Counted from the first letter of the stretch, positions 4,017 to 54,234 are shown. The stretch: DNA of 64,000 nucleotides from an uncultured bacterium (GCA_963839205.1 CAWITU010000001.1:4643-68642); one strand, 5' to 3'. Notes: generated by a model from the letters alone, not told the origin. Program-made: numbers and translations.

Positions 4017-5269
4017 ATGTCAATTAACGCATCGAATTATGAATTGGAAGTTATTAACCCTGGGGACCGCGCTTCTGCGCTAGCCCATCAAGTTAACATT
4101 GATAGCTATAAAAACTGCCCTGCCGTTCTGATTGTTCCGCACCAACCCGGAAATTTCCGGGGACCTGTTGGATATATTTGGCGGCCAGAAATTCTCCGGG
4201 CCATGTTGGAAAAACTCCAACTTAGTGATAGTGGTGAAGAAGTTGTAAATTGGGGGATGATTGGCGCCGTCGAGAATGATGGAGCTGGTGGAAAAGGACA
4301 ATTTTTAACCTTAAGCAACAAGCTTGAGGCGTGGCGTAATTTTGGTTGGGAAATTATCACGATGACCGCCGATGATTTAGCGCGCAGCGGTCGTTTCCCA
4401 GCAATCATGAGCAACGAGATTAATGTCCGGAATATCAATGAAAATAACTTTGCTATCATGGAAGCGATTTTTCTTGGTTACGGTGAAGCGCTCCGACAAT
4501 CACATCTGGTTAACATAACAGGTGAAACTGCGGTCATGAAAAATAGCGTTACCGCCTTTTGTGATATCAATTCCAAGGAACAACTTGTCGTGACTTGGGG
4601 AGGGACATGTTTGGGGCTGGCTGATAGTAAAGCCCTAATCACCGGAAAACTCTTCGCCCCGGTCTCGCTGTCATCGGCTTTCTGGAACACGGTTATCGGT
4701 GTAATGGTGGAACCTTTTTCACTGACTTGATTATGGGGAAATGGGGGCCAAACATTCGGCAGATTCTGCAAAATCCAGAAGCGATGAAATTTGTCGATCA
4801 GCTCACTAAACCATCTTTGAGTTACTCCGGGATTATTACCAAACTCGTTGGATGGAAGCCTAATGGTCTTCTCGGTGAGCCAATGGTAAAAATTCACGGC
4901 GCTGCGCATATTACTGGTGGAGGTGTTTGGGGGAAACTCGCGGACATACTTCCGCCTGGCGTCGGAGTTGAACTTCCTGAGATGCCAGAACCACCGGCGG
5001 TACTTCTAGAAGCACAGAAACTTTCAGCAAGACTACAAAATCCGCTAAATGATTTCCGTGCATACGGGGACCTTCATGGAGGTTGTGGAATGTTTGTGAT
5101 TTGCAATCCAGAAGATGCCGACACGGTAATTGCAGAAGTTTCTCGACAAGGTAAGGTTGCTAAAAAAGTTGGTGTCACGACCGAGTCAGAAAATTCTGAG
5201 ATTCGAATCAAATCGCGTTTCATGGAGGGGAGATGGCTTTCGTCGTTAGAAAGTTCGTCAGCAAGTTAA
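4017..5269 (+). CDS. PurM/AIR-synthase-like ATP-binding protein, interrupted by one frameshift near 4655-4665
   Basis: It has VENDGAGGKG, TADDLARSG, NITGETAVM and AAHITGGGVWGKL motifs. The two track ORFs (3990-4730, 4727-5269) join as ..KLFAP|GLAVIGFLEHGYRCNGGTFF.. in another frame. Confidence 0.7.
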
Positions 5270-7577: not shown

Positions 7578-8294
7578 ATGCGACTACACCGATTCTATTA
7601 TAAAGCGCAAATAGGGGATAAAAAGGAGATTTTTATTGAAAATAATCCATTAATTCACCAATGGAAGAATGTATTTCGTCTAAAACCAGCTGATAAAGTA
7701 ATCCTTTTTGATAATTCTGGTTTTGAATATTTGGCGGAGATTGTTTTGATAAGCAAAGATGAAACTAGAATTAAGATTTTGGAAGTTAAAGATAAGAAAG
7801 TTGAAAGCAGCGAAAAGCCGGATGTTAGGCTTTTCGCTGCTTTAATAAAGAAAGACAACTTTGAATTAATTATTCAAAAGGCAACCGAGCTCGGGGTTTC
7901 AGAAATTACTCCAATCATTTCAGATAGGAGTGAGAAAAAGGATCTAAATATGGAACGAGCTGAAAAGATTATTATTGAGGCGTCTGAGCAGTCGGGGAGA
8001 GTGCTTTTACCAATATTAAATAAGCCCCAAAAACTAGAAGAGGCGCTAGATGAAATAAATATGAATTTTGTTTCATTTAATCCTGAAGGAGAATCGCTAA
8101 AATCTGGGGATAATCTCAAAGCTCTAAAAGAAAAAGGCCCGATCGGGCTATTGATCGGGCCTGAAGGAGGCTGGAGTGATAAGGAGATTGAATTATTTAA
8201 ATCAAAAAATATTCCTATCTATAATCTCGGCTCTCAAATTCTTCGAGCCGAAACCGCCGCCATCGCTATCTCAGGATTATTTCTGCTCTCCTAG
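7578..8294 (+). CDS. rsmE: 16S rRNA (uracil1498-N3)-methyltransferase
   Basis: It has the MRLHRFY start, KATELGV and a LLIGPEGGWS C-terminal motif. Confidence 0.85.
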   Translation: MRLHRFYYKAQIGDKKEIFIENNPLIHQWKNVFRLKPADKVILFDNSGFEYLAEIVLISKDETRIKILEVKDKKVESSEKPDVRLFAALIKKDNFELIIQKATELGVSEITPIISDRSEKKDLNMERAEKIIIEASEQSGRVLLPILNKPQKLEEALDEINMNFVSFNPEGESLKSGDNLKALKEKGPIGLLIGPEGGWSDKEIELFKSKNIPIYNLGSQILRAETAAIAISGLFLLS

Positions 8295-17660: not shown

Positions 17661-18413
17661 ATGAGTAAGATCATCATTGCTAATTGGAAGATGAATCCGG
17701 AGACTCTGCTTCAAGCTAAAAATATTTTCCAATCAATAAAGGGTTATTCAAAAAATACTAAGTCAAAAATAGTTGTTTGTCCTCCATATATTTATATTAA
17801 AGATTTAATTGAACTTTCAAAAAAAACAAAAAAAATAGTTGTTGGAGCTCAAGATGTTTTTTTTGAAGGAGACGGACCCTTTACTGGGGAGGTAAGTGCA
17901 CCAATGCTTAAAAGTGTTGGTGCTAAGTATGTAATTGTGGGGCATTCGGAAAGGCGCGCACTCGGGGAGACGTCGTCCGACGTCTCCCGAAAAGTGCGCG
18001 CCGCCCTCTCCTTCGACATCTCTCCTATTCTTTGTATTGGTGAATCAGCTAGGGATGAAGATGGTGAGTACCTGAAGGATTTAAGAGAAATGCTTAAGTT
18101 GTCTCTTTTAAATATTGGAGAAAAAAATATTTCAAAGCTTATTATTGCTTACGAACCAATTTGGACCATAGGTGACGGACATTTTGCTATGACACCACAT
18201 GACATCCATCAGACAGCCGTCTTTATTAAAAAAGAACTAACAACCATTTTTGGAGAAAAGATTGGAAGAAAAATTCCAATACTGTATGGAGGATCTGTTG
18301 ATCCAAAAAATGCCGAAACAATCGTTAAAGAAAGTCATGTCAATGGTCTTCTTGTTGGTCGAGAAAGTCTCAAGGCCGAAAATTTTGGTCTTATAATAAA
18401 ATCAGTTAAGTAA
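17661..18413 (+). CDS. tpiA: triose-phosphate isomerase
   Basis: It has IIANWKMN, VGHSERR, CIGE, AYEPIWTIG and YGGSV motifs. Confidence 0.95.
   Translation: MSKIIIANWKMNPETLLQAKNIFQSIKGYSKNTKSKIVVCPPYIYIKDLIELSKKTKKIVVGAQDVFFEGDGPFTGEVSAPMLKSVGAKYVIVGHSERRALGETSSDVSRKVRAALSFDISPILCIGESARDEDGEYLKDLREMLKLSLLNIGEKNISKLIIAYEPIWTIGDGHFAMTPHDIHQTAVFIKKELTTIFGEKIGRKIPILYGGSVDPKNAETIVKESHVNGLLVGRESLKAENFGLIIKSVK
17953..18002. repeat. 50-nt GC-rich nested palindrome inside tpiA coding sequence
   Basis: GGCGCGCACT-CGGGGAGACGTCG-TC-CGACGTCTCCCG-AAA-AGTGCGCGCC. The outer 10-bp arms are perfect and the inner 12-bp arms have one bulge. It encodes RRALGETSSDVSRKVRAA. Confidence 0.9.
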
Positions 18414-20016: not shown

Positions 20017-21753
20017 ATGTCGGCAATGGCAAAATATTCTGTAAGAAAAGAGGCCTCACCGGACCTTGTAAAACACCTTCTTTTTCATCGTGGGGTTAGT
20101 GAAGAGGGTGAGATACTGAAGTTCCTTTCGCCTGACTATGTTAAGCATACCCATAATCCATTTTTGATGAAAGGAATAGCGGAGGCCGTCCAAAGGACGG
20201 CCTCCGCTATCGTCTCCGGCGAAAAAATTGCCATCTGGAGTGACTATGATGCCGACGGCATTCCAGGAGCGGTAGTTCTACATGATTTTTTTAAAAAAAT
20301 TGGCTATGAACATTTTCAAAATTACATTCCTAATAGGGCCGTGGAAGGGTTTGGCTTAAATATTGATGGCGTGAAAGAACTTTCTCAATCTGGCGTCAAA
20401 TTAATTATTACTATTGATTGTGGGATCTCTGATGTTAAAGAAGTTGAACAGGCAAATACTTTGGGAATTAATGTAATTATTACTGATCACCACTTGCCAG
20501 GTGAAAAATTGCCAAAAGCTTTTGCGATTATAAATCCAAAACAATCTGGTTGTGAGTATCCAGAAAAAATGCTCTGTGGTTCGGGGGTTATTTTTAAATT
20601 CGTTCAAGCACTTTTAAAAGATCCCGAAATTCAAAAGTATATTTCAGGGAAGGGGATTGAAATAAAAGAAGGGTGGGAAAAATGGTTATTAGATATGGTT
20701 GGTATTGCCACACTTTCAGATATGGTGCCCCTTGTCGGTGAGAATCGAATGTTTGCGTACTTCGGTTTAATGGTGCTACGCAAATCTCCGAGGGTTGGTC
20801 TCTCAAAGCTCCTGCGTAAGTTAAAAATTTCTCAAAAGGATGTCACTGAAGATGATATTGGTTTTATGATATCTCCCAGAATCAATGCTGCTTCTCGCAT
20901 GGGCGTTCCGTCCGATGCTTTTAAATTACTTTCAACAAGTGACGAAGGTGAGGCTGGAGCCTTGGCTGACCATTTAGATAAAATAAATAATGAGAGAAAG
21001 GGAACGGTGGCTGCAATGGTCAAAGAGATTAGGAAGAAAATGGAATCACGTCTAATTAGATCAACTATTGTCATGGGTAATCCTTCCTGGAGACCAACAT
21101 TACTAGGTTTGGCGGCTAACACTTTGATGAGGGAACATGCTCGACCAGTATTTCTTTGGGGAAGGGAGGGCGGAGAAATTATTAAAGGTTCTTGTCGGTC
21201 AGATGGTAGTGTAAGTGTTATGGACATTATGCAATCAACTCCGGAGGGAACCTTTTTGGATTTCGGTGGGCACGCTGCTTCTGGAGGGTTTTCTGTTTCA
21301 AATGAAAAAATTCATTTTCTGGAAGAAGCACTTGAATCAGCTTATCAAAAGGTGATTGAAGGGAAACCAAATATCGCAGATACAGAAATTATGATTGATA
21401 AAGAAATTTCTTTGAATGATGTGTCCTGGAATATGTATGGTCAGCTTGAAAAGTTAGCACCATTTGGAGAAGGGAATCCAAAACCGCTTTTTCTTATTTC
21501 AAAGTCCAAAGTTCAATCCGCAAAAATGTTTGGTAAAGAAAATAATCATTTTGAACTAACTCTTGTAAATTCATCAGGGAAAATTATTAAAGGAATTTGT
21601 TTCTTTGTTCAAGATTCTCCCTTTATTTCAAAAATTAACCCAGATAATCTTGCGACTCTTTCTGACACCTCGATTAATATCATTGCTTCTCTTGAGAAAA
21701 GTATGTTTCGAAATTATCCTGAGCTAAGATTGCGAATTGTTGATATTATTTAA
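20017..21753 (+). CDS. recJ: single-stranded-DNA-specific exonuclease RecJ
   Basis: It has DHH motifs SDYDADG, ITIDCG and ITDHH, plus the DHHA1 GGHAASGG. Confidence 0.9.
   Translation: MSAMAKYSVRKEASPDLVKHLLFHRGVSEEGEILKFLSPDYVKHTHNPFLMKGIAEAVQRTASAIVSGEKIAIWSDYDADGIPGAVVLHDFFKKIGYEHFQNYIPNRAVEGFGLNIDGVKELSQSGVKLIITIDCGISDVKEVEQANTLGINVIITDHHLPGEKLPKAFAIINPKQSGCEYPEKMLCGSGVIFKFVQALLKDPEIQKYISGKGIEIKEGWEKWLLDMVGIATLSDMVPLVGENRMFAYFGLMVLRKSPRVGLSKLLRKLKISQKDVTEDDIGFMISPRINAASRMGVPSDAFKLLSTSDEGEAGALADHLDKINNERKGTVAAMVKEIRKKMESRLIRSTIVMGNPSWRPTLLGLAANTLMREHARPVFLWGREGGEIIKGSCRSDGSVSVMDIMQSTPEGTFLDFGGHAASGGFSVSNEKIHFLEEALESAYQKVIEGKPNIADTEIMIDKEISLNDVSWNMYGQLEKLAPFGEGNPKPLFLISKSKVQSAKMFGKENNHFELTLVNSSGKIIKGICFFVQDSPFISKINPDNLATLSDTSINIIASLEKSMFRNYPELRLRIVDII
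20178..20208. repeat. perfect 14-bp-stem GC-rich palindrome inside recJ
   Basis: AGCGGAGGCCGTCC-AAA-GGACGGCCTCCGCT. It encodes AEAVQRTASA. Confidence 0.95.
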
Positions 21754-22308: not shown

Positions 22309-23940
22309 GTGTTTAATCACGAGATGATCTTTTGTATCGGATTTCTATTTGGTGTTTTTGTTTCATCTCTCTACCCGATATCTATTTTTGTTTCTATTGT
22401 TTTTGTAATCTCTTTAGTTAGCTTATTTGTAGTATTTTCATCTTTAAATTTTAATAAGACTAAATTAATTAGCTTATTTTTTCTGGCATTATTTTTAGGA
22501 TTTTTAAGAATTGGAATTTTTAATTACTATTCGGTGCCTGATAAACCTCTTCAGCAACTTGTTAATCAAAATATTTCTGGAAAAGCATTGATTACAGATG
22601 AGCCGGATAGGAGAGATACCACCATACGACTAACGGCTAAGGTTAAATCGATTAAAGGAGAAGGTGGCCAAATTAATATTAAAAACGGTGGAGTTATCTT
22701 TGTGACCGACTTAAATTCAATAATATCTTATGGTGACGAAGTCTCATTTTCTGGAAAGCTTCTACCGATTGAAGATTTTCAAACTGATTCTGATAGGATT
22801 TTTCATTATCAAAAATTTATGGAAAGGAGTGGTATTTATTATGATTTATACAATCCCAAATTAACTGTTATTTCTAGAGATAATGGTTTTTATCTACGTG
22901 CTTGGCTATTTAATCTAAAAGAGAATTTTCTAAAACAACTTTCTTCTGTGATTCCAAGGCCGGAGGTATTGCTGTTAGGGGGGCTATTGCTTGGCACCAA
23001 ACATTCTTTAGGAAATGATTTGCTGGCTGATTTTCAAAAGACGGGTGTCATTCATATGGTGGTAATTTCTGGGTATAACATTACTGTCGTGGTTGAGGCC
23101 ATGAGTGCAGTCTTTTCTTTCCTGCCCTTCCTTGCCAGAATTTTCTCTTCTTCGGTTGGTGTTATTCTTTTTGTTCTGATGACTGGCTTTTCTTCAGCGT
23201 CACTTCGAGCCGGTATTATGGTTTTAATTGCTCTATTAGGTAAAGCGGTTAGCAGAAAATATGATGTGGTTCGAGCGATCGTAATTTCAGCTTTTATTTT
23301 AACCATTCTTAGCCCGTTGGTTATAGTTTATGATCCGTCATTTCAATTAAGTTTCTTAGCCTCACTAGCTTTAATTTTTGTTTCGCCGATTATCGAGAAT
23401 TATTTTAAATTTGTACCAGAGTTTTTGAAACTCCAAGAGACAGTTATCGCAACGATATCAGTTATGATTTTTGTATTACCACTTTTGATTTATATGAATG
23501 GAGTTGTGTCATTTCTCTCAATTTTTGTGAATATTTTAGTTTTGTTTCCGGTGCCGTATGTGATGTTTCTCGGTTTTATAACTGGAGTAATTTCTTTTGT
23601 ATTTCCATTTCTAGCAATTCCTACTGGATTTATTTCTTATCTCATATTGCACTATATTATTTTTGTAGTTGAAACCGCCGCCCATTTGAAGTGGGCGGCG
23701 GCAACTGTTCCGGCTTTTCCGGCTTGGAATTTACTTGTTGTTTATATTTTCTATGCTTTCATTTTGTGGAAGTTTCACCGTGGCAAAGTCACAATACTTC
23801 CGGAAAAGCCTACTCTTCAAACCTCTTACCAATTAACTCCCAATCTAAATTATCAAAAACAGCCTCAACATATTTCTTCTTGTCAGCTGGAACATAATCA
23901 AAAAGATAAGAATGCTCCCACATATCCAATGCAAAAATAA
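22309..23940 (+). CDS. comEC: ComEC/Rec2 DNA internalisation channel (competence domain only)
   Basis: The protein is polytopic and carries the competence-domain signature GVIHMVVISGYNITVV. The 3' end overlaps the convergent SOD-like gene by 131 nt. Confidence 0.8.
   Translation: MFNHEMIFCIGFLFGVFVSSLYPISIFVSIVFVISLVSLFVVFSSLNFNKTKLISLFFLALFLGFLRIGIFNYYSVPDKPLQQLVNQNISGKALITDEPDRRDTTIRLTAKVKSIKGEGGQINIKNGGVIFVTDLNSIISYGDEVSFSGKLLPIEDFQTDSDRIFHYQKFMERSGIYYDLYNPKLTVISRDNGFYLRAWLFNLKENFLKQLSSVIPRPEVLLLGGLLLGTKHSLGNDLLADFQKTGVIHMVVISGYNITVVVEAMSAVFSFLPFLARIFSSSVGVILFVLMTGFSSASLRAGIMVLIALLGKAVSRKYDVVRAIVISAFILTILSPLVIVYDPSFQLSFLASLALIFVSPIIENYFKFVPEFLKLQETVIATISVMIFVLPLLIYMNGVVSFLSIFVNILVLFPVPYVMFLGFITGVISFVFPFLAIPTGFISYLILHYIIFVVETAAHLKWAAATVPAFPAWNLLVVYIFYAFILWKFHRGKVTILPEKPTLQTSYQLTPNLNYQKQPQHISSCQLEHNQKDKNAPTYPMQK
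23675..23701. repeat. perfect 10-bp-stem GC palindrome inside comEC
   Basis: CCGCCGCCCA-TTTGAAG-TGGGCGGCGG. Confidence 0.85.
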
Positions 23941-41486: not shown

Positions 41487-41499
41487 TCAATAATGAAAA

Positions 41500-41528
41500 G
41501 GGCCTCCGCCTTAGGCGGAGGCCCTTTT
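41500..41528 (+). terminator. rho-independent terminator GGGCCTCCGCC-TTA-GGCGGAGGCCC
   Basis: A perfect 11-bp stem is followed by TTTT. Confidence 0.85.
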
Positions 41529-41549
41529 CATATTTGCTATAATAGTGCC

Positions 41550-48059: not shown

Positions 48060-50837
48060 ATGGAAGCGGTCCCATCACAATTTAATTCTCCTGAACAAGA
48101 GCTGGCGTACCTACGCGAGCAGGTGGCAAGTAAGGAACTTGAACTTAAGAAGAATAAAGAAGAGGCTTATCGACCGAATGTTGTTAATGAAACGATTCAG
48201 GAATACAAGAAACAGATTCCGGAAGAAGTTTTGAGCAAAGATCTCCGTTTGAGTCACATGCATAAGGAAGCAATAGTCTTAGATCTAAAACCTGAACCAC
48301 ATGATAGACAGATTGAAGAGCTAATCGGTCTGCTTCAAGAAAAAGGGGTTTTAAATACAATTGCTATTATCGAAAGAATGAACAATCCTCATCTAGAGGA
48401 CGATTTTCATCGTTTCTTGGTTCAATACATTAAACAAGGCTTACCAGCCCCAGGTCTTAAAGAGGGAGGTACTGAAGCAAAAGCTCTTGCTTATACACTT
48501 TACGAAGTTTCTTTGCCTGATATTAAAAAAGAGGAAGAAGAAAAGGAATTAAAACTTTTGGTTTCTTCAATGGAACAATTTTATTCTGGAATGCTTTCTG
48601 TAGAAATTGATTCAAAGAGAAGAAGTTACATGTCGATTGAACTTGCTGTTTCTGCTCATGATGAGGAGACGGTTTTTTATGCAGCGGTGCCAGATGATAA
48701 GAAGAATCTTTTTGAGAAACAAGTCTTGTCCATTTTTCCTCACGCCAAACTGATTGAGAAGAAAGATGATTACAATATTTTCAACGAAGATGGCGTTTCG
48801 GTCGGGTCATACCTGACCCAATCCCGAAACGCCATCTATCCAATCAAGACCTACGACCAATTTGATTATGATCCTTTGAATGTTGTTCTAAATACTTTTT
48901 CTAAACTCGATAGAGAGCACGAGGGGGCCTCAATTCAGCTTATATTCAGCCCTGCCGGCGATTATTATGTTAGCCGATACAAACACGCACTTAAGGAAAT
49001 TACGAGTGGCGTGAAGCTAAAAAAAGCTATAGATATTCGCCATACTGTCTTCGGGGAGTTTATGAAGACGGGTAAAGAAATCATGTCAGAAACTGTTAAA
49101 GATATGTTTAAACCTTCCGGTAAGAAAGGTGAAGTTGAAAAAGAAAAACAACAGCCGATTGACGAATCAGCGGTTGAAAACATCAAGAAAAAAGTTGAGA
49201 GTCCAATTGTTGATGCCAATATTAGAATTGTGGTATCAGCCCAAAATCAAATTAGGGCCAATCAAGTTCTTTCCGATCTTGAATCAGCTTTCAATCAATT
49301 TGATAACCCACTTGGTAACGCTATTAAATTTGAAAGACAAACAAAAGGAAATCTTTCCAAATTATTTAAAGATTATTCGTATAGACTATTTTCAGATGAA
49401 CATAAATTGCCACTAAGTATTAAGGAGGTGACAACGATGATTCATTTTCCTGGAGAAGCGATTAAATCATCACCCAATCTTAAGAGATCTAAAGCTGGTA
49501 CCTCGGCGGCGCCACTCAATCTTTCTCATGATGGAATTTTGCTTGGTTACAATAAAGACCGAAATATTGAGACTAAGATTTTCATGGGCAAGGAAGACCG
49601 TTTGCGCCATTTTTATACAATCGGTCAAACTGGAACTGGTAAGACAAACTTCCTGAAAAATATGATTATTCAGGACATTCAAAATGGGGACGGTGTTTGT
49701 ATGATTGACCCACACGGCTCTGATATTCAAGATGTTTTGGCTAACATTCCAAAAGAACGTTACGAAGATGTTATTTATTTTGACCCAAGCTACACCGGAC
49801 GTCCGATGGCGCTTAACATGCTTGAGTATGATCCAGCTTTTCCAGAGCAAAAGACCTTCGTTGTTAACGAATTATTTAATATTTTCCAAAAATTGTACGG
49901 TGGAAACCCTGAATCAATGGGTCCAATGTTTGAACAGTATTTTAGAAATTCCACCATGCTTGTTATTGAGGACCCAGAAACAGGGAATACTCTGCTTGAT
50001 GTCTCACGTGTAATGTCTAACAAATCTTTTAGAGATTTGAAACTTTCAAGATGTAAAAATCCAATTGTTGTTCAGTTCTGGAAAGAGATTGCTGAGAAGG
50101 CTGGGGGAGAAAGTTCACTTGCCAACATTGTTCCATATATCACTAGCAAATTTGATATATTCTTGGCTAACGACATCATGCGTCCGATTGTCGCTCAAGA
50201 ACATTCGTCCTTTAATTTCCGAGACATTATGGATAATAAGAAAATTCTTTTGGTCAATTTGGCCAAAGGTAGGCTTGGCGATATTAACGCCAATCTTCTC
50301 GGTCTAATTTTGGTTGGTAAAATTCTAATGGCAGCTCTTTCAAGAGTTGACTCATTCGGTAAAGATTTACCGCCTTTCTATTTGTACATCGATGAATTCC
50401 AAAATATTACGACTAATTCGATTTCCACGATTCTGTCTGAGGCTCGAAAGTATAAATTAAGTTTGACCATTGCCCACCAATTCATTGCCCAGCTTGAAGA
50501 CGATATTAGAGATTCAGTTTTTGGAAACGTCGGTTCAATTGCTTCATTCCGCGTCGGCGCCGAAGACGCGGAATATTTAGAGAAACAATTTGATCCAGTT
50601 TTTACTCGTTCAGATATTATGAATTTGGATAATTACAACGCTTACATAAAAATGCTCTCTGGCGGTGCTCCGGTTCGTCCATTCAACATTGTCACTCTCG
50701 TAGCTCCAAGAGGTAATCCAGACATCATTGCTAATCTAAAAGAACTTTCTTATCTAAAGTTTGGTAAAGACAAGGACGAAGTCCAAGAAACTATTATGGA
50801 GAAGTACAAAAAAGCCCCAGTTTCTGATAGAATCTAG
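48060..50837 (+). CDS. large P-loop ATPase of the VirD4/TraD/HerA-FtsK-like type (coupling-protein-like) with ~480-aa unknown N-terminal half
   Basis: Walker A GQTGTGKTNF, Walker B-like FYLYIDEFQN, later TIAHQF. Confidence 0.65.
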   Translation: MEAVPSQFNSPEQELAYLREQVASKELELKKNKEEAYRPNVVNETIQEYKKQIPEEVLSKDLRLSHMHKEAIVLDLKPEPHDRQIEELIGLLQEKGVLNTIAIIERMNNPHLEDDFHRFLVQYIKQGLPAPGLKEGGTEAKALAYTLYEVSLPDIKKEEEEKELKLLVSSMEQFYSGMLSVEIDSKRRSYMSIELAVSAHDEETVFYAAVPDDKKNLFEKQVLSIFPHAKLIEKKDDYNIFNEDGVSVGSYLTQSRNAIYPIKTYDQFDYDPLNVVLNTFSKLDREHEGASIQLIFSPAGDYYVSRYKHALKEITSGVKLKKAIDIRHTVFGEFMKTGKEIMSETVKDMFKPSGKKGEVEKEKQQPIDESAVENIKKKVESPIVDANIRIVVSAQNQIRANQVLSDLESAFNQFDNPLGNAIKFERQTKGNLSKLFKDYSYRLFSDEHKLPLSIKEVTTMIHFPGEAIKSSPNLKRSKAGTSAAPLNLSHDGILLGYNKDRNIETKIFMGKEDRLRHFYTIGQTGTGKTNFLKNMIIQDIQNGDGVCMIDPHGSDIQDVLANIPKERYEDVIYFDPSYTGRPMALNMLEYDPAFPEQKTFVVNELFNIFQKLYGGNPESMGPMFEQYFRNSTMLVIEDPETGNTLLDVSRVMSNKSFRDLKLSRCKNPIVVQFWKEIAEKAGGESSLANIVPYITSKFDIFLANDIMRPIVAQEHSSFNFRDIMDNKKILLVNLAKGRLGDINANLLGLILVGKILMAALSRVDSFGKDLPPFYLYIDEFQNITTNSISTILSEARKYKLSLTIAHQFIAQLEDDIRDSVFGNVGSIASFRVGAEDAEYLEKQFDPVFTRSDIMNLDNYNAYIKMLSGGAPVRPFNIVTLVAPRGNPDIIANLKELSYLKFGKDKDEVQETIMEKYKKAPVSDRI
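48789..48836. repeat. 48-nt nested GC-rich palindrome inside the ATPase gene
   Basis: GATGGCGTTTCGG (13 bp, perfect) .. GGGTCA-TACC-TGACCC .. CCGAAACGCCATC. Confidence 0.95.
50546..50574. repeat. perfect 10-bp-stem palindrome inside the ATPase gene
   Basis: ATTCCGCGTC-GGCGCCGAA-GACGCGGAAT. Confidence 0.85.
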
Positions 50838-50870: not shown

Positions 50871-51482
50871 ATGGCAGAACAAAAACATCAGGATGAAAGA
50901 ACGTTGATTATTATCAAGCCAGACGGCGTTCAGAGAAGTTTGATTGGAGAGATAATTCAGCGATATGAAAGAGTTGGTCTAAAACTTCTCGGAGTTAAGA
51001 TGGTGGTGCCGACAGTTGATCATATTGAGAAACATTACACCCTTGATCCAAATTGGCGGAGAGTAACAGGTGAAAAAACAATCAAAGGGTATCAGGATAA
51101 GGGGATGACGCCTCCATCAATGGACCCATTAGAGATCACGGGCCGAATTTTGGAAGGTCTTAAGAAATATATTTCGAGTGGTCCTGTCATTGCTATGGTT
51201 TGGCAGGGAGCTCATGCTGTAAAGATTGTTAGAAAGATTACTGGAGGTACTGAACCCCTCACGTCTGACGTTGGATCTATTCGAGGAGACTTCGTTTTGG
51301 ACTCATACCAACTTTCTGACACCGATGGAAGAGCAGTTAGAAACTTAGTGCACGCATCTGGTTCACCGGACGAAGCAAATATGGAAATCAATCACTGGTT
51401 TAAAGCAGATGAGCTAATTGATTACAGATTAATTCAAGACCAGATTCTCTATGACGTCAATTTGGATGGAATTCTTGAATAA
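50871..51482 (+). CDS. ndk: nucleoside-diphosphate kinase (long form with internal insertion)
   Basis: ERTLIIIKPDGVQR.., ..NLVHASGS.. active-site region. It is 203 aa versus the usual ~140. Confidence 0.8.
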   Translation: MAEQKHQDERTLIIIKPDGVQRSLIGEIIQRYERVGLKLLGVKMVVPTVDHIEKHYTLDPNWRRVTGEKTIKGYQDKGMTPPSMDPLEITGRILEGLKKYISSGPVIAMVWQGAHAVKIVRKITGGTEPLTSDVGSIRGDFVLDSYQLSDTDGRAVRNLVHASGSPDEANMEINHWFKADELIDYRLIQDQILYDVNLDGILE

Positions 51483-51559
51483 ATTTTTCCTGAAGAAGTA
51501 ATGAAGTTTCGTTAAAAGGTCAAGACTTGCTTTTCTAATGGGAGGTATATAATTGGCAA

Positions 51560-51732
51560 AGGTTACTCGGGATATAATCTAGATTAATTTTATAGTCAGG
51601 GATCTCAAGTCATTCTAGACCTTGGTCCAGATTGCAGAGAACCCACCTAGCCTAAAGCTGGGTCTATATCTTCGAGTAATCGAATCAGTGCGCCCCCGCG
51701 AAGCTCCGAAGGAGCGAAGTGGGGGCGCTTTG
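51560..51732 (+). ncRNA. candidate structured small RNA (~170 nt)
   Basis: A TATAAT at 51548-51553 precedes it. A 16/17-bp closing helix GGTTACTCGGGATATA (51561-51576) / TATATCTTCGAGTAATC (51665-51681) includes G-U pairs. A terminal stem-loop GCGCCCCC..GCTCC-GAA-GGAGC..GGGGGCGC lies at 51690-51728. No ORF is present. Confidence 0.35.
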
Positions 51733-51745
51733 ATATAATAACCAT

Positions 51746-52162
51746 ATGAAAAGCGCACCTTTATTTAAATTACTCTTCAGTCTCTTGGTGGTTATTGCCT
51801 CTTTACATATTTTGTCTAGTTTCTTGTATTTATATTGGTCAATTCAATGGATTCATTTAATTATTCATTTCTTAAGCGGAATATTAGTTAGTCTTTCGGC
51901 TTTGTGTTTAATTTATGTTTCTGAATATGATTTTTTAAGAAAGAGGATTTCTGAAGCGCCGATAGCGACGTTCTTTGTCGCTATCGGCGCTTCACTTGTT
52001 GCAGGTATTCTCTGGGAGGTCTTTGAGCTAACTTTTGGTATAACTTTTCTTTCTGATCAGAACTACTTATCCCAAAATGGCTCCGAAGTAATTGCTGCTC
52101 TGTCTGGGGGACTCATTGGTTGGGCTTATTTTTCTTACAAACACCTCAATCATCGTGTATAA
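51746..52162 (+). CDS. hypothetical integral membrane protein (leaderless start)
   Basis: TGaTATAAT (51731-51739) lies 6 nt before the ATG. The protein has four hydrophobic segments. Confidence 0.6.
   Translation: MKSAPLFKLLFSLLVVIASLHILSSFLYLYWSIQWIHLIIHFLSGILVSLSALCLIYVSEYDFLRKRISEAPIATFFVAIGASLVAGILWEVFELTFGITFLSDQNYLSQNGSEVIAALSGGLIGWAYFSYKHLNHRV
51953..51993. repeat. perfect 17-bp-stem GC-rich palindrome inside the membrane-protein gene
   Basis: GAAGCGCCGATAGCGAC-GTTCTTT-GTCGCTATCGGCGCTTC. It encodes EAPIATFFVAIGAS. Confidence 0.95.
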
Positions 52163-52169
52163 TTAATCG

Positions 52170-53540
52170 ATGAGTGAACAATCTAAAGTTAAACTGACAT
52201 TTTGTGGAGGGGCTGGATCTGTAACTGGTGCAAATTTTCTATTGGAGGATGAATCAAAAAAAATATTGGTTGATTGTGGAATGGAACAGGGTACTAAGTA
52301 TTGTATGGAAAAGAATGCAGATCCGTTTATTTACGACCCAGCCTCAATTGATATTCTTTTTATTACTCATGCTCATATTGATCACACCGGTCGTATTCCA
52401 AAATTAGTTAGAGATGGTTTTAAGGGAGTGATATATTCAACACCTGAAACAAAGAGCCTAGCACTTCCAATGCTCGAGGATAGTATGAAACTATTGGAAA
52501 AGGAAGCCGAGTATCATAAAGAAAAACCACTTTATACAAGTGATGATGTTCAAAAATCTTTTACCTTGTGGCAAACAATTCCATATCATGTATCGAAAGA
52601 TATTGGAGATGGGTGGTCAGTTTACCTAAAAGATGCAGGCCACGTTCTAGGTTCATCAATGATTGAACTTTCAAAAAATGGAAAGAAGATTGTCTTTACA
52701 GGGGATTTGGGAAATACTCCAACTCCACTTTTGCGTGATACAGAACCTGTTACAGACGCTGATTACCTAGTTATGGAGAGCGTTTACGGAGATAGGAATC
52801 ACGAGTCTCATGATGAAAGAATCGACAAGTTGGAGGATTATATTGAAGATACTGTCAAAAGAGGGGGGGTACTTATGATACCTGCTTTTTCACTTGAGAA
52901 GACACAAGTAATTCTTTACGAAATGAATAAATTGGTTGAAGAAAATAGAATACCATCAGTACCAGTCTATTTAGATTCACCACTAGCAATTAAAATTACG
53001 GAAATCTATCGAGAGATGTCTAAAGACTTTAATCCGGAAGCAAAGAAACTAGCCACAACTGATGATTTATTTGATTTCCCAAATTTACACGTAACAGTCA
53101 CATCAGGTGAATCAAAAGCTATTCTTGAAGCCCCAAATCCAAAAGTCATTATGGCTGGGTCGGGAATGTCGAATGGCGGAAGAATTCTTCATCACGAGAT
53201 TAATTATCTTGGTGACAGGAAAAACACCCTCCTTTTAATTGGTTACCAATCTGTGGGAACATTGGGCAGACAAATTGATGACGGAGCAAAACACGTTAAG
53301 ATAATGGGCCAAGATATTGTAGTTGCGGCAACGGTTGTAAAGATTGATGGTTATTCTTCTCATAAAGATTCAGATCATCTATTTCAGTTTGTTGAGCAAA
53401 TGGAAGCTAAAGTCAAAAAAATATTTGTGGTAATGGGTGAACCAAAATCGTCACTATTTTTGGTACAGCGTTTGCGTGATTATTTGGGTTTGAATGCGTA
53501 TCATCCAAATGAAGGTGAAAGTGTTACTTTAGATTTTTAA
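52170..53540 (+). CDS. MBL-fold beta-CASP family hydrolase (RNA-metabolising type)
   Basis: HAHIDHTG motif, then DAGH, TGDLG and ESVYG, with a C-terminal ..GYSSHKD.. (beta-CASP motifs). Confidence 0.8.
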   Translation: MSEQSKVKLTFCGGAGSVTGANFLLEDESKKILVDCGMEQGTKYCMEKNADPFIYDPASIDILFITHAHIDHTGRIPKLVRDGFKGVIYSTPETKSLALPMLEDSMKLLEKEAEYHKEKPLYTSDDVQKSFTLWQTIPYHVSKDIGDGWSVYLKDAGHVLGSSMIELSKNGKKIVFTGDLGNTPTPLLRDTEPVTDADYLVMESVYGDRNHESHDERIDKLEDYIEDTVKRGGVLMIPAFSLEKTQVILYEMNKLVEENRIPSVPVYLDSPLAIKITEIYREMSKDFNPEAKKLATTDDLFDFPNLHVTVTSGESKAILEAPNPKVIMAGSGMSNGGRILHHEINYLGDRKNTLLLIGYQSVGTLGRQIDDGAKHVKIMGQDIVVAATVVKIDGYSSHKDSDHLFQFVEQMEAKVKKIFVVMGEPKSSLFLVQRLRDYLGLNAYHPNEGESVTLDF

Positions 53541-54182: not shown

Positions 54183-54205
54183 TACAAAAAGTTAACATAG
54201 AAAAA

Positions 54206-54234
54206 GGGCCCCAGCCTAAGGCTGGGGCCCTTTT
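54206..54234. terminator. bidirectional terminator GGGCCCCAGCC-TAA-GGCTGGGGCCC
   Basis: Perfect 11-bp stem flanked by an A-run and a T-run, between convergent genes. Confidence 0.85.

Follow-up and report, generated by a model that had tools for sequence, protein, structure and literature searches.

A Perfect Hairpin in a Membrane-Protein Gene, with Base Pairing Rather than Sequence Kept between Two Bacterial Genomes

The Host Gene and Its Neighbourhood

The DNA analysed here, hereafter the window, is a stretch of 64,000 nucleotides from an uncultured bacterium of the Patescibacteria (CPR). It contains a gene for a small membrane protein with a palindrome inside its coding sequence, and the locus is made of the following features.

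50871-51482: ndk
51746-52162, + strand: host gene, coding for a 138-aa four-helix membrane protein; dN/dS of 0.14 against the relative L001, indicating purifying selection
51952-51969, + strand: left arm of the hairpin, TGAAGCGCCGATAGCGAC, coding for (S)EAPIAT, which closes the TM2-TM3 loop and opens TM3, with the rare codons GCG, CCG, ATA, GCG, and ACG
51970-51976, + strand: hairpin loop, GTTCTTT (7 nt), coding for FF within TM3; its counterpart in L001 is GCTTCTC
51977-51994, + strand: right arm, GTCGCTATCGGCGCTTCA, coding for VAIGAS, a part of TM3 conserved across the protein family; probable template of the left arm
52170-53540: gene of a 456-aa β-CASP metallo-β-lactamase, followed by a SLOG/LOG-like gene

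The host protein has four hydrophobic segments, and its similarity with DUF2238 is sub-threshold only. We recovered 22 homologous loci, all from Patescibacteria/CPR by label with the exception of L003 (a MAG labelled Nitrospira), and the motifs W.D...H..GG and G(L/I)LWEVFE are common to the family. L001 is the closest of these relatives, with amino-acid identities to the window of 94% for the β-CASP protein and 97.5% for NDK. The divergence between the two corresponds to a dS of about 1.0-1.8, with 35-43% of third positions different. Given its dN/dS of 0.14, the membrane-protein gene is real and under selection. The values for the neighbour genes in the same comparison are 0.01-0.02, against which the membrane-protein gene evolves about 7-10 times faster. 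It is missing in L024, where ndk, a structured RNA (see below), and the β-CASP gene are directly consecutive (L024 2752-3000, corresponding to 51483-52169 in the window). The gene appears to be dispensable and fast-evolving.

A Perfect Palindrome Translated Partly into a TM Helix

An initial annotation of the window had described a perfect palindrome with a 17-bp stem at 51953-51993. The repeat is indeed perfect, but it is longer: it spans 51952-51994 on the + strand, with 18 Watson-Crick pairs between the arms 51952-51969 (TGAAGCGCCGATAGCGAC) and 51977-51994 (GTCGCTATCGGCGCTTCA), and a closing G-U (G51970 with T51976) raises the stem to 19 pairs in RNA folding. As annotated, the host gene codes for a small membrane protein, and its ORF reads through the palindrome in frame to give the peptide S-EAPIATFFVAIGAS. 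It had also been taken for the longest uninterrupted stem in the window, a rank that belongs to a terminator-like palindrome at 41493-41531 (19 bp, 1-nt loop); it is instead the most stable 46-nt fold, with -36.4 kcal/mol in a sliding fold of the window (mean -5.8, sd 3.6). A 67-nt segment containing the hairpin folds with -37.2 kcal/mol as sense RNA (z = -6.8), -35.5 kcal/mol as antisense RNA (z = -8.3), and -24.3 kcal/mol as DNA (z = -8.4), and none of 200 shuffles matched its fold energy. The GC content is 38.7% in the window, 34% in the host ORF minus the palindrome, 56% in the palindrome, and 61% in the 18-bp stem. No second copy of the arm was found in the 64-kb window with up to three mismatches.

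The palindrome is genuine. Among synonymous-codon shuffles of all ORFs (n = 20), the longest perfect stem had 12 bp; over 1487 nt that include the palindrome, an independent Logan assembly (run ERR10755936) does not differ from the window at any position (100% identity); and L001, which comes from a different sample, has a diverged but still paired version of the hairpin. Taken together, these results rule out both chance and an error of assembly.

The N-terminal half of TM3 is made up of the final three left-arm codons (IAT), the loop of the hairpin (FF), and the right arm (VAIGAS), and these columns are filled and hydrophobic in all 21 other members of the family. The placement of the palindrome within a TM segment is therefore correct for these parts, but not for the start of the left arm, whose four opening codons (SEAP) lie in the TM2-TM3 loop, at columns where only 1-3 of the 21 homologues have residues. 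The annotation had further asked whether the TM segment might be an insertion relative to homologues. This is ruled out, since TM3 (residues 73 onward) is present in 21 of 21 homologues. What is specific to the lineage is no more than about 4-6 residues of the loop, and excising the 43-nt palindrome would remove the TM3 helix. The quasi-mirror peptide that had been noticed is real and is of the complement type (E/S, A/A, P/G, I/I, A/A, T/V), as the arms pair third codon positions with each other and first with second positions. The rare codons of the left arm have relative frequencies of 0.13 (GCG), 0.15 (CCG), 0.16 (ATA), and 0.10 (ACG).

Base Pairing Is Kept in L001 by Compensatory Changes

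Among L001 and the 21 more distant homologues, the focal hairpin occurs only in L001. The distant homologues (≤47% amino-acid identity) keep the helix, but code it by non-palindromic DNA with a different peptide; this includes the fully syntenic L023, and L022 also lacks the hairpin. In L001, all 18 pairs of the stem are kept and none is broken: 12 pairs are identical, four have changed on both sides, and two on one side, so that 10 of the 36 arm positions differ between the two genomes, altered in concert. The four double changes are all at third-position pairs, and three of them are of the transition type (two from A-T to G-C and one from G-C to A-T). In the sense strand, the two one-sided changes lead to wobble pairs (G-U and U-G); in the antisense strand, the same positions are A-C mismatches. 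Among the 12 paired third positions of the stem, nine differ, against a background of about 40%. The hairpin loop is not conserved. The L001 version folds with -39.5 kcal/mol as sense and -35.0 kcal/mol as antisense RNA.

A neutral simulation with the empirical third-position spectrum gave a probability of 0.0018 for four or more double changes, and a codon-aware one, using empirical codon substitutions, a probability of 0.0038 for keeping 18 of 18 pairs. The folds of the codon-aware simulation have a mean of -16.5 kcal/mol, and 0.03% of them reach -35 kcal/mol or better, whereas -38.5 kcal/mol was observed for L001. Two genomes carry the hairpin, and the covariation is that of a single pairwise comparison; for this pair, the alignment shows that base pairing, and not sequence, has been kept. 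According to the initial annotation, homologues with the same peptide coded by non-palindromic DNA would have pointed to chance or drift. The outcome is mixed, as the distant homologues are non-palindromic but code for another peptide and L001 keeps the palindrome by compensatory substitutions, and it argues against chance.

The left arm of L001 (AAGGAGGCACCGATG, at 5203-5221) contains a perfect Shine-Dalgarno sequence (AAGGAGG-N5-ATG) and an in-frame ATG (M73), both of which the stem would sequester. At these places the window has TCTGAAG, which is not Shine-Dalgarno-like, and ATA instead of ATG. An internal translation start at the left arm was rejected for this reason, and the motif of L001 is probably a coincidence.

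Other Hairpins within Genes of the Window

Strong GC-rich hairpins occur in at least six further places within housekeeping genes, making at least seven with the focal one. The intragenic hairpins found besides it are the following.

7804-7843, + strand: perfect 16-bp hairpin in rsmE; its right arm codes for the conserved LFAAL motif and its left arm falls within a variable linker
8135-8162, + strand: second rsmE hairpin, 10-12 bp; the right arm is the conserved GPEGG motif
17956-17999, + strand: hairpin of 7 + 10 bp in the triosephosphate isomerase gene (tpiA), -31 to -33 kcal/mol
20176-20210, + strand: perfect 16-bp hairpin in recJ (IAEAVQRTASA)
23666-23707, + strand: 18-pair hairpin in comEC, -28 kcal/mol
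48788-48837, + strand: hairpin of 14 + 6 bp in a T4SS-coupling-protein-like (ATPase) gene, -33 kcal/mol; also in L001, absent from L024
50546-50574 and 11825-11868: second hairpin of the T4SS-coupling-like gene (10 bp) and one in an unannotated ORF, respectively

The ORFs of the window contain 10 perfect stems of at least 10 bp, where 0.55 are expected, and the 64 kb hold 6-7 intragenic hairpins at -25 kcal/mol or stronger. Not one of this strength was found within genes in about 130 kb of other AT-rich Patescibacteria, where practically every strong hairpin is a terminator with A/T tracts located between genes. By this comparison of sequences, the GC-rich intragenic hairpins are a lineage-specific set. 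A search for recJ, tpiA, rsmE, and comEC of a close relative found none; the best relatives of rsmE were at most 57% identical, and the 90% clusters contained only the source genome.

The hairpin at 48788-48837 is the sole other intragenic one covered by L001, which has kept it. In this stem, third-codon positions face first and second positions that are constrained by the amino acids, and of the 14 third positions paired in this way a single one differs in L001, against 36% in the background (P = 0.018), the change yielding a G-U pair. The T4SS-like ortholog of L024 has the same conserved peptide, without indel and without hairpin. The two hairpins are complementary cases: where partners are free (3-3 phase, in the focal hairpin) they covary, and where they are fixed by the protein (in the T4SS hairpin) the third positions are frozen. 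Over the two stems, the one-sided changes all give G-U on the sense strand (3 of 3), which has a probability of roughly 0.1-0.2 given the mutation spectrum. Neither of the two lineages has gained an intragenic hairpin over a dS of about 1.

No common position in genes, motif, or loop motif was found among the nine intragenic hairpins, whose sequences are unrelated. There is also no consistent bias towards higher stability of the sense over the antisense strand among them (five favour sense and three antisense), and the idea that they are antisense terminators was discarded, as no antisense T-tract is consistently found across the nine. Between genes, the convergent terminator separating the LOG-like gene from rplT (54202-54234 in the window, 7434-7475 in L001, 5010-5053 in L023, and 5031-5065 in L024) takes the form of a long perfect palindrome in each of the four genomes. 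The sequences of its stem have essentially nothing in common, not even those of the window and L001, which indicates that perfect hairpins turn over rapidly in the clade.

Comparison with Known Elements

With its GC-rich perfect stem-loop, the focal hairpin resembles Rho-independent terminators, and those of the source genome are also long perfect palindromes. The genuine terminators of that genome are, however, flanked by A and T runs, whereas the focal hairpin lacks a U/T tract on both strands (four T in sense and three in antisense among the 10 nt that follow, not as a run) and lies in mid-gene, starting 206 nt into an ORF of 417 nt of which 165 nt remain. It is not called by the terminator scan either, and we agree with the initial annotation that it is not a classical terminator.

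Stimulatory hairpins are known in the -1 frameshifting of dnaX and IS elements and in the bypass of T4 gene 60. Here too, a strong hairpin lies inside an ORF with U UUU UUA upstream: the heptamer T TTT TTA at 51931-51937 is in the zero frame, and the -1 frame stops at a TGA (51951-51953) that overlaps the first bases of the stem. However, a slippery X XXY YYZ heptamer is expected 5-9 nt upstream of the structure, and the spacer has 14 nt; the heptamer is not conserved (T TTT ATA in L001), the ORF is open, and the peptide aligns with homologues. A frameshift site was rejected on the grounds of distance and of the L001 sequence. The known in-frame or palindromic elements (Rickettsia palindromic elements, REP/BIME, Correia, and other MITEs) provide another likeness, that of a palindrome translated within a protein. 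The focal palindrome differs in being single-copy in the window, 43 nt long, and not inserted, and each hairpin of the window has an unrelated sequence. The orthologous L001 site is its only match among the 24 loci, and no copies were found in IMG/VR or in plasmids, weak phage matches being confined to the AT-rich flank. An operator or parS-type site was rejected because the half-sites are not conserved, about a quarter of the arm positions having changed in concert.

Cis-acting mRNA structures and RNase III processing hairpins are known in coding regions, e.g., in the rnc and pnp mRNAs. The focal hairpin shares several features with coding-region RNA stem-loops that are supported by covariation, namely a stem of 18-19 bp, compensatory and sense-strand G-U changes, and a free loop. 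Its pairs are kept by compensatory change beyond the neutral expectation (P = 0.002-0.004, for one sequence pair), and its length is at the lower edge of the about two turns of uninterrupted dsRNA that are a criterion for RNase III substrates. It differs from such stem-loops in lying mid-ORF rather than in a leader, in having only Watson-Crick pairs, and in belonging to no Rfam family. No known RNA family was matched at gathering score, and at E ≤ 1 Rfam returned only generic hairpins (miRNA precursors and unrelated sRNA families) far below threshold.

A Probable Origin by Template Switching

Quasi-palindrome mutagenesis is a classical process in E. coli. A single template switch can give rise to a perfect stem, and template switching also repairs stems (Monttinen and Loytynoja 2022, PMC8794818). 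The focal palindrome resembles the products of this process in being a perfect reverse-complement repeat beside its presumed template, with one ancestral and one novel arm, and in its concerted complementary changes at multiple sites. The focal gene shares its polarity with the two rsmE hairpins and with the outer T4SS stem: the upstream arm is variable and the downstream arm conserved (TM3 in the focal gene, LFAALIKKD and GPEGG in rsmE, RNAI in the T4SS-like gene). The focal left arm, moreover, has rare NCG and ATA codons. From these sequence patterns we infer that the left arm is an inverted copy of the right arm. A replication template switch would have copied the TM3-coding right arm, inverted, into the adjoining, poorly constrained segment of the TM2-TM3 loop, and one such event would yield both the perfect 18-bp inverted repeat and the mirror peptide. 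Stepwise selection is implausible, as a perfect 18-bp complement in 3-3 phase needs complementarity at the level of the amino acids. Unlike the described template-switch products, the focal hairpin is found in a protein-coding CPR gene and not in an RNA gene or in non-coding DNA, it has persisted over a dS of about 1, and it belongs to a lineage-specific set within housekeeping genes.

Template-switch footprints were sought in about 8.5 kb of alignment between the window and L001. There are four clusters, of which three correspond to the focal hairpin and a terminator, versus five in the "reverse" control; ongoing template switching was thus rejected, the substitution clusters being no better explained by nearby reverse complements than in the control. 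A perfect 12-bp palindrome at 52051-52062 (TTCTGATCAGAA) corresponds in L001 to TTCTGACCCAAA, with three differences in the second half and a fourth immediately 3′, which change an otherwise conserved Pro to Gln. This pattern could result from a template switch, and is statistically not distinguishable from chance.

Maintenance of the Pairing

The reading that we favour, and to which we give an even chance, is that of a clade-specific coding stem-loop that was born by template switching and whose pairing is kept as a structure, most likely in the sense mRNA. The 18 pairs have indeed been kept over a dS of about 1, with paired third-codon positions changing together. In this scenario, the sense mRNA of the membrane-protein/β-CASP/LOG-like operon would carry a very stable stem-loop. 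Such a stem might block ribosomes or exonucleases, or serve as an RNase III-type processing site; this putative mode of action at the mRNA level is the least certain part of the reading. A stem kept in the sense mRNA is preferred because the one-sided changes give G-U on the sense strand, because two hairpins were kept over a dS of about 1 without any hairpin gain or loss, and because there is no general excess of template switching. Against it, the double changes have accumulated at a neutral-like or higher rate. Selection on RNA stems usually slows substitution, and hence templated re-copying fits this rate better. Also against it, none of the 18 perfect pairs of the window is a G-U, which resembles a DNA palindrome more than a typical functional RNA helix, and the nine intragenic hairpins show no common regulatory logic. 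We regard it as rather doubtful that the lineage carries a whole undescribed class of selected stem-loops in its housekeeping genes, written by template switching and kept for an mRNA-level role; in a cell poor in ribosomes and RNases, such stems might act against decay, be processed, or make ribosomes pause.

The pairing might instead persist without any function, if mutations in the arms of a self-correcting DNA palindrome were re-copied or erased by quasi-palindrome template switching; the enrichment of hairpins in the clade would then reflect a raised rate of template switching, e.g., following the loss of ssDNA exonucleases. We consider this neutral explanation, the main and a serious rival, to be somewhat improbable, although it explains better the absence of G-U pairs, the rate of double changes, the missing positional and strand logic, and the rewritten terminators. 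The stems are perfectly Watson-Crick (18/18, 16/16, and 16/16), nine of 12 paired third positions are different, the hairpins follow no logic of position, sequence, or strand, the intergenic terminators of the clade are long perfect palindromes with stems wholly rewritten between relatives, and template switching is known to make and mend stems (PMC8794818). Even the frozen third positions of the T4SS hairpin fit, if mismatches were reverted and protein-changing conversions purged. However, the window-L001 alignment has no excess of template-switch clusters, no new intragenic hairpin arose in either lineage, and the process demands correction rates far above the point-mutation rate, sustained for long; the one-sided changes of the focal (two) and T4SS (one) stems, all G-U in the sense strand, also speak weakly against it. 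An element acting at the DNA level, as a cruciform or as an ssDNA hairpin in replication, transformation, or transfer that is recognised by a structure-specific protein, is improbable. The almost equal folding of both strands, the DNA fold (z = -8.4), the covariation of the arms, by which shape rather than sequence would matter, and the DNA-uptake and T4SS-like proteins coded in the neighbourhood and in the genome are in its favour. Yet the hairpins have no shared sequence or loop motif, the focal loop itself differing between the window and L001, they are scattered in unrelated housekeeping genes, no nearby gene is linked to them, and the two wobble positions of L001 are A-C mismatches on the antisense strand. 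Finally, chance, an artefact, or a known type of element (terminator, -1 frameshift site, REP/RPE/MITE, or operator) is effectively refuted. The terminator-like GC-rich stem and the heptamer in the correct frame with its -1 stop codon could suggest such an origin, but they are outweighed by the 12-bp limit of the shuffles, the two identical assemblies and the diverged second sample, the missing T-tract, the 14-nt spacer and lack of conservation of the heptamer, the single copy without insertion, and the concerted change of the arms.

If selection keeps the pairing, the CPR, whose gene expression is poorly understood, would have a new type of cis-element, and the hairpin would be a clean case of a nucleic-acid structure dictating protein sequence, the peptide of the left arm being the complement of TM3. 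If there is indeed a selected class, the lineage would offer a natural example of functional hairpins that arise in protein-coding genes by template switching and are also maintained by it. If the pairing persists without selection, this would be a natural bacterial case of template switching creating and policing perfect intragenic hairpins, and it would bear on the reading of covariation as evidence of RNA function.

Promoter-Like Sites and a Structured RNA-Like Element Upstream of the Host Gene

The membrane-protein and β-CASP genes both have a TATAAT -10-like site about 6-18 nt 5′ of the ATG (51719-51748 and 52134-52172, respectively). The promoter-like layout is TGATATAAT-N18-ATG in the former and CTTACA-18-TATAAT-N6-ATG in the latter, and no Shine-Dalgarno motif was found ahead of either gene. 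This arrangement of sequence motifs suggests that their mRNAs are leaderless or have very short leaders.

Between ndk and the membrane-protein gene there is a structured RNA-like element of about 125 nt (51534-51735, + strand). A promoter-like site (TTGCTT-17-TATAAT) belongs to it, as does a terminator hairpin (51690-51730). Orthologs of the element are present in L001 (4790-4990), L023 (2359-2540), and L024 (2752-2950), and also in L002 and L022; in L024 the element sits immediately 5′ of the β-CASP gene. A search of Rfam gave no match for 51534-51735. The element is 94% identical to that of L001, above the conservation of the flanking genes, and RNAalifold on five sequences predicts 40 pairs, 15 of which have compensatory double changes. 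From its sequence, the arrangement (promoter, structure, terminator, ORF) resembles that of a riboswitch or attenuator leader of an undescribed kind.
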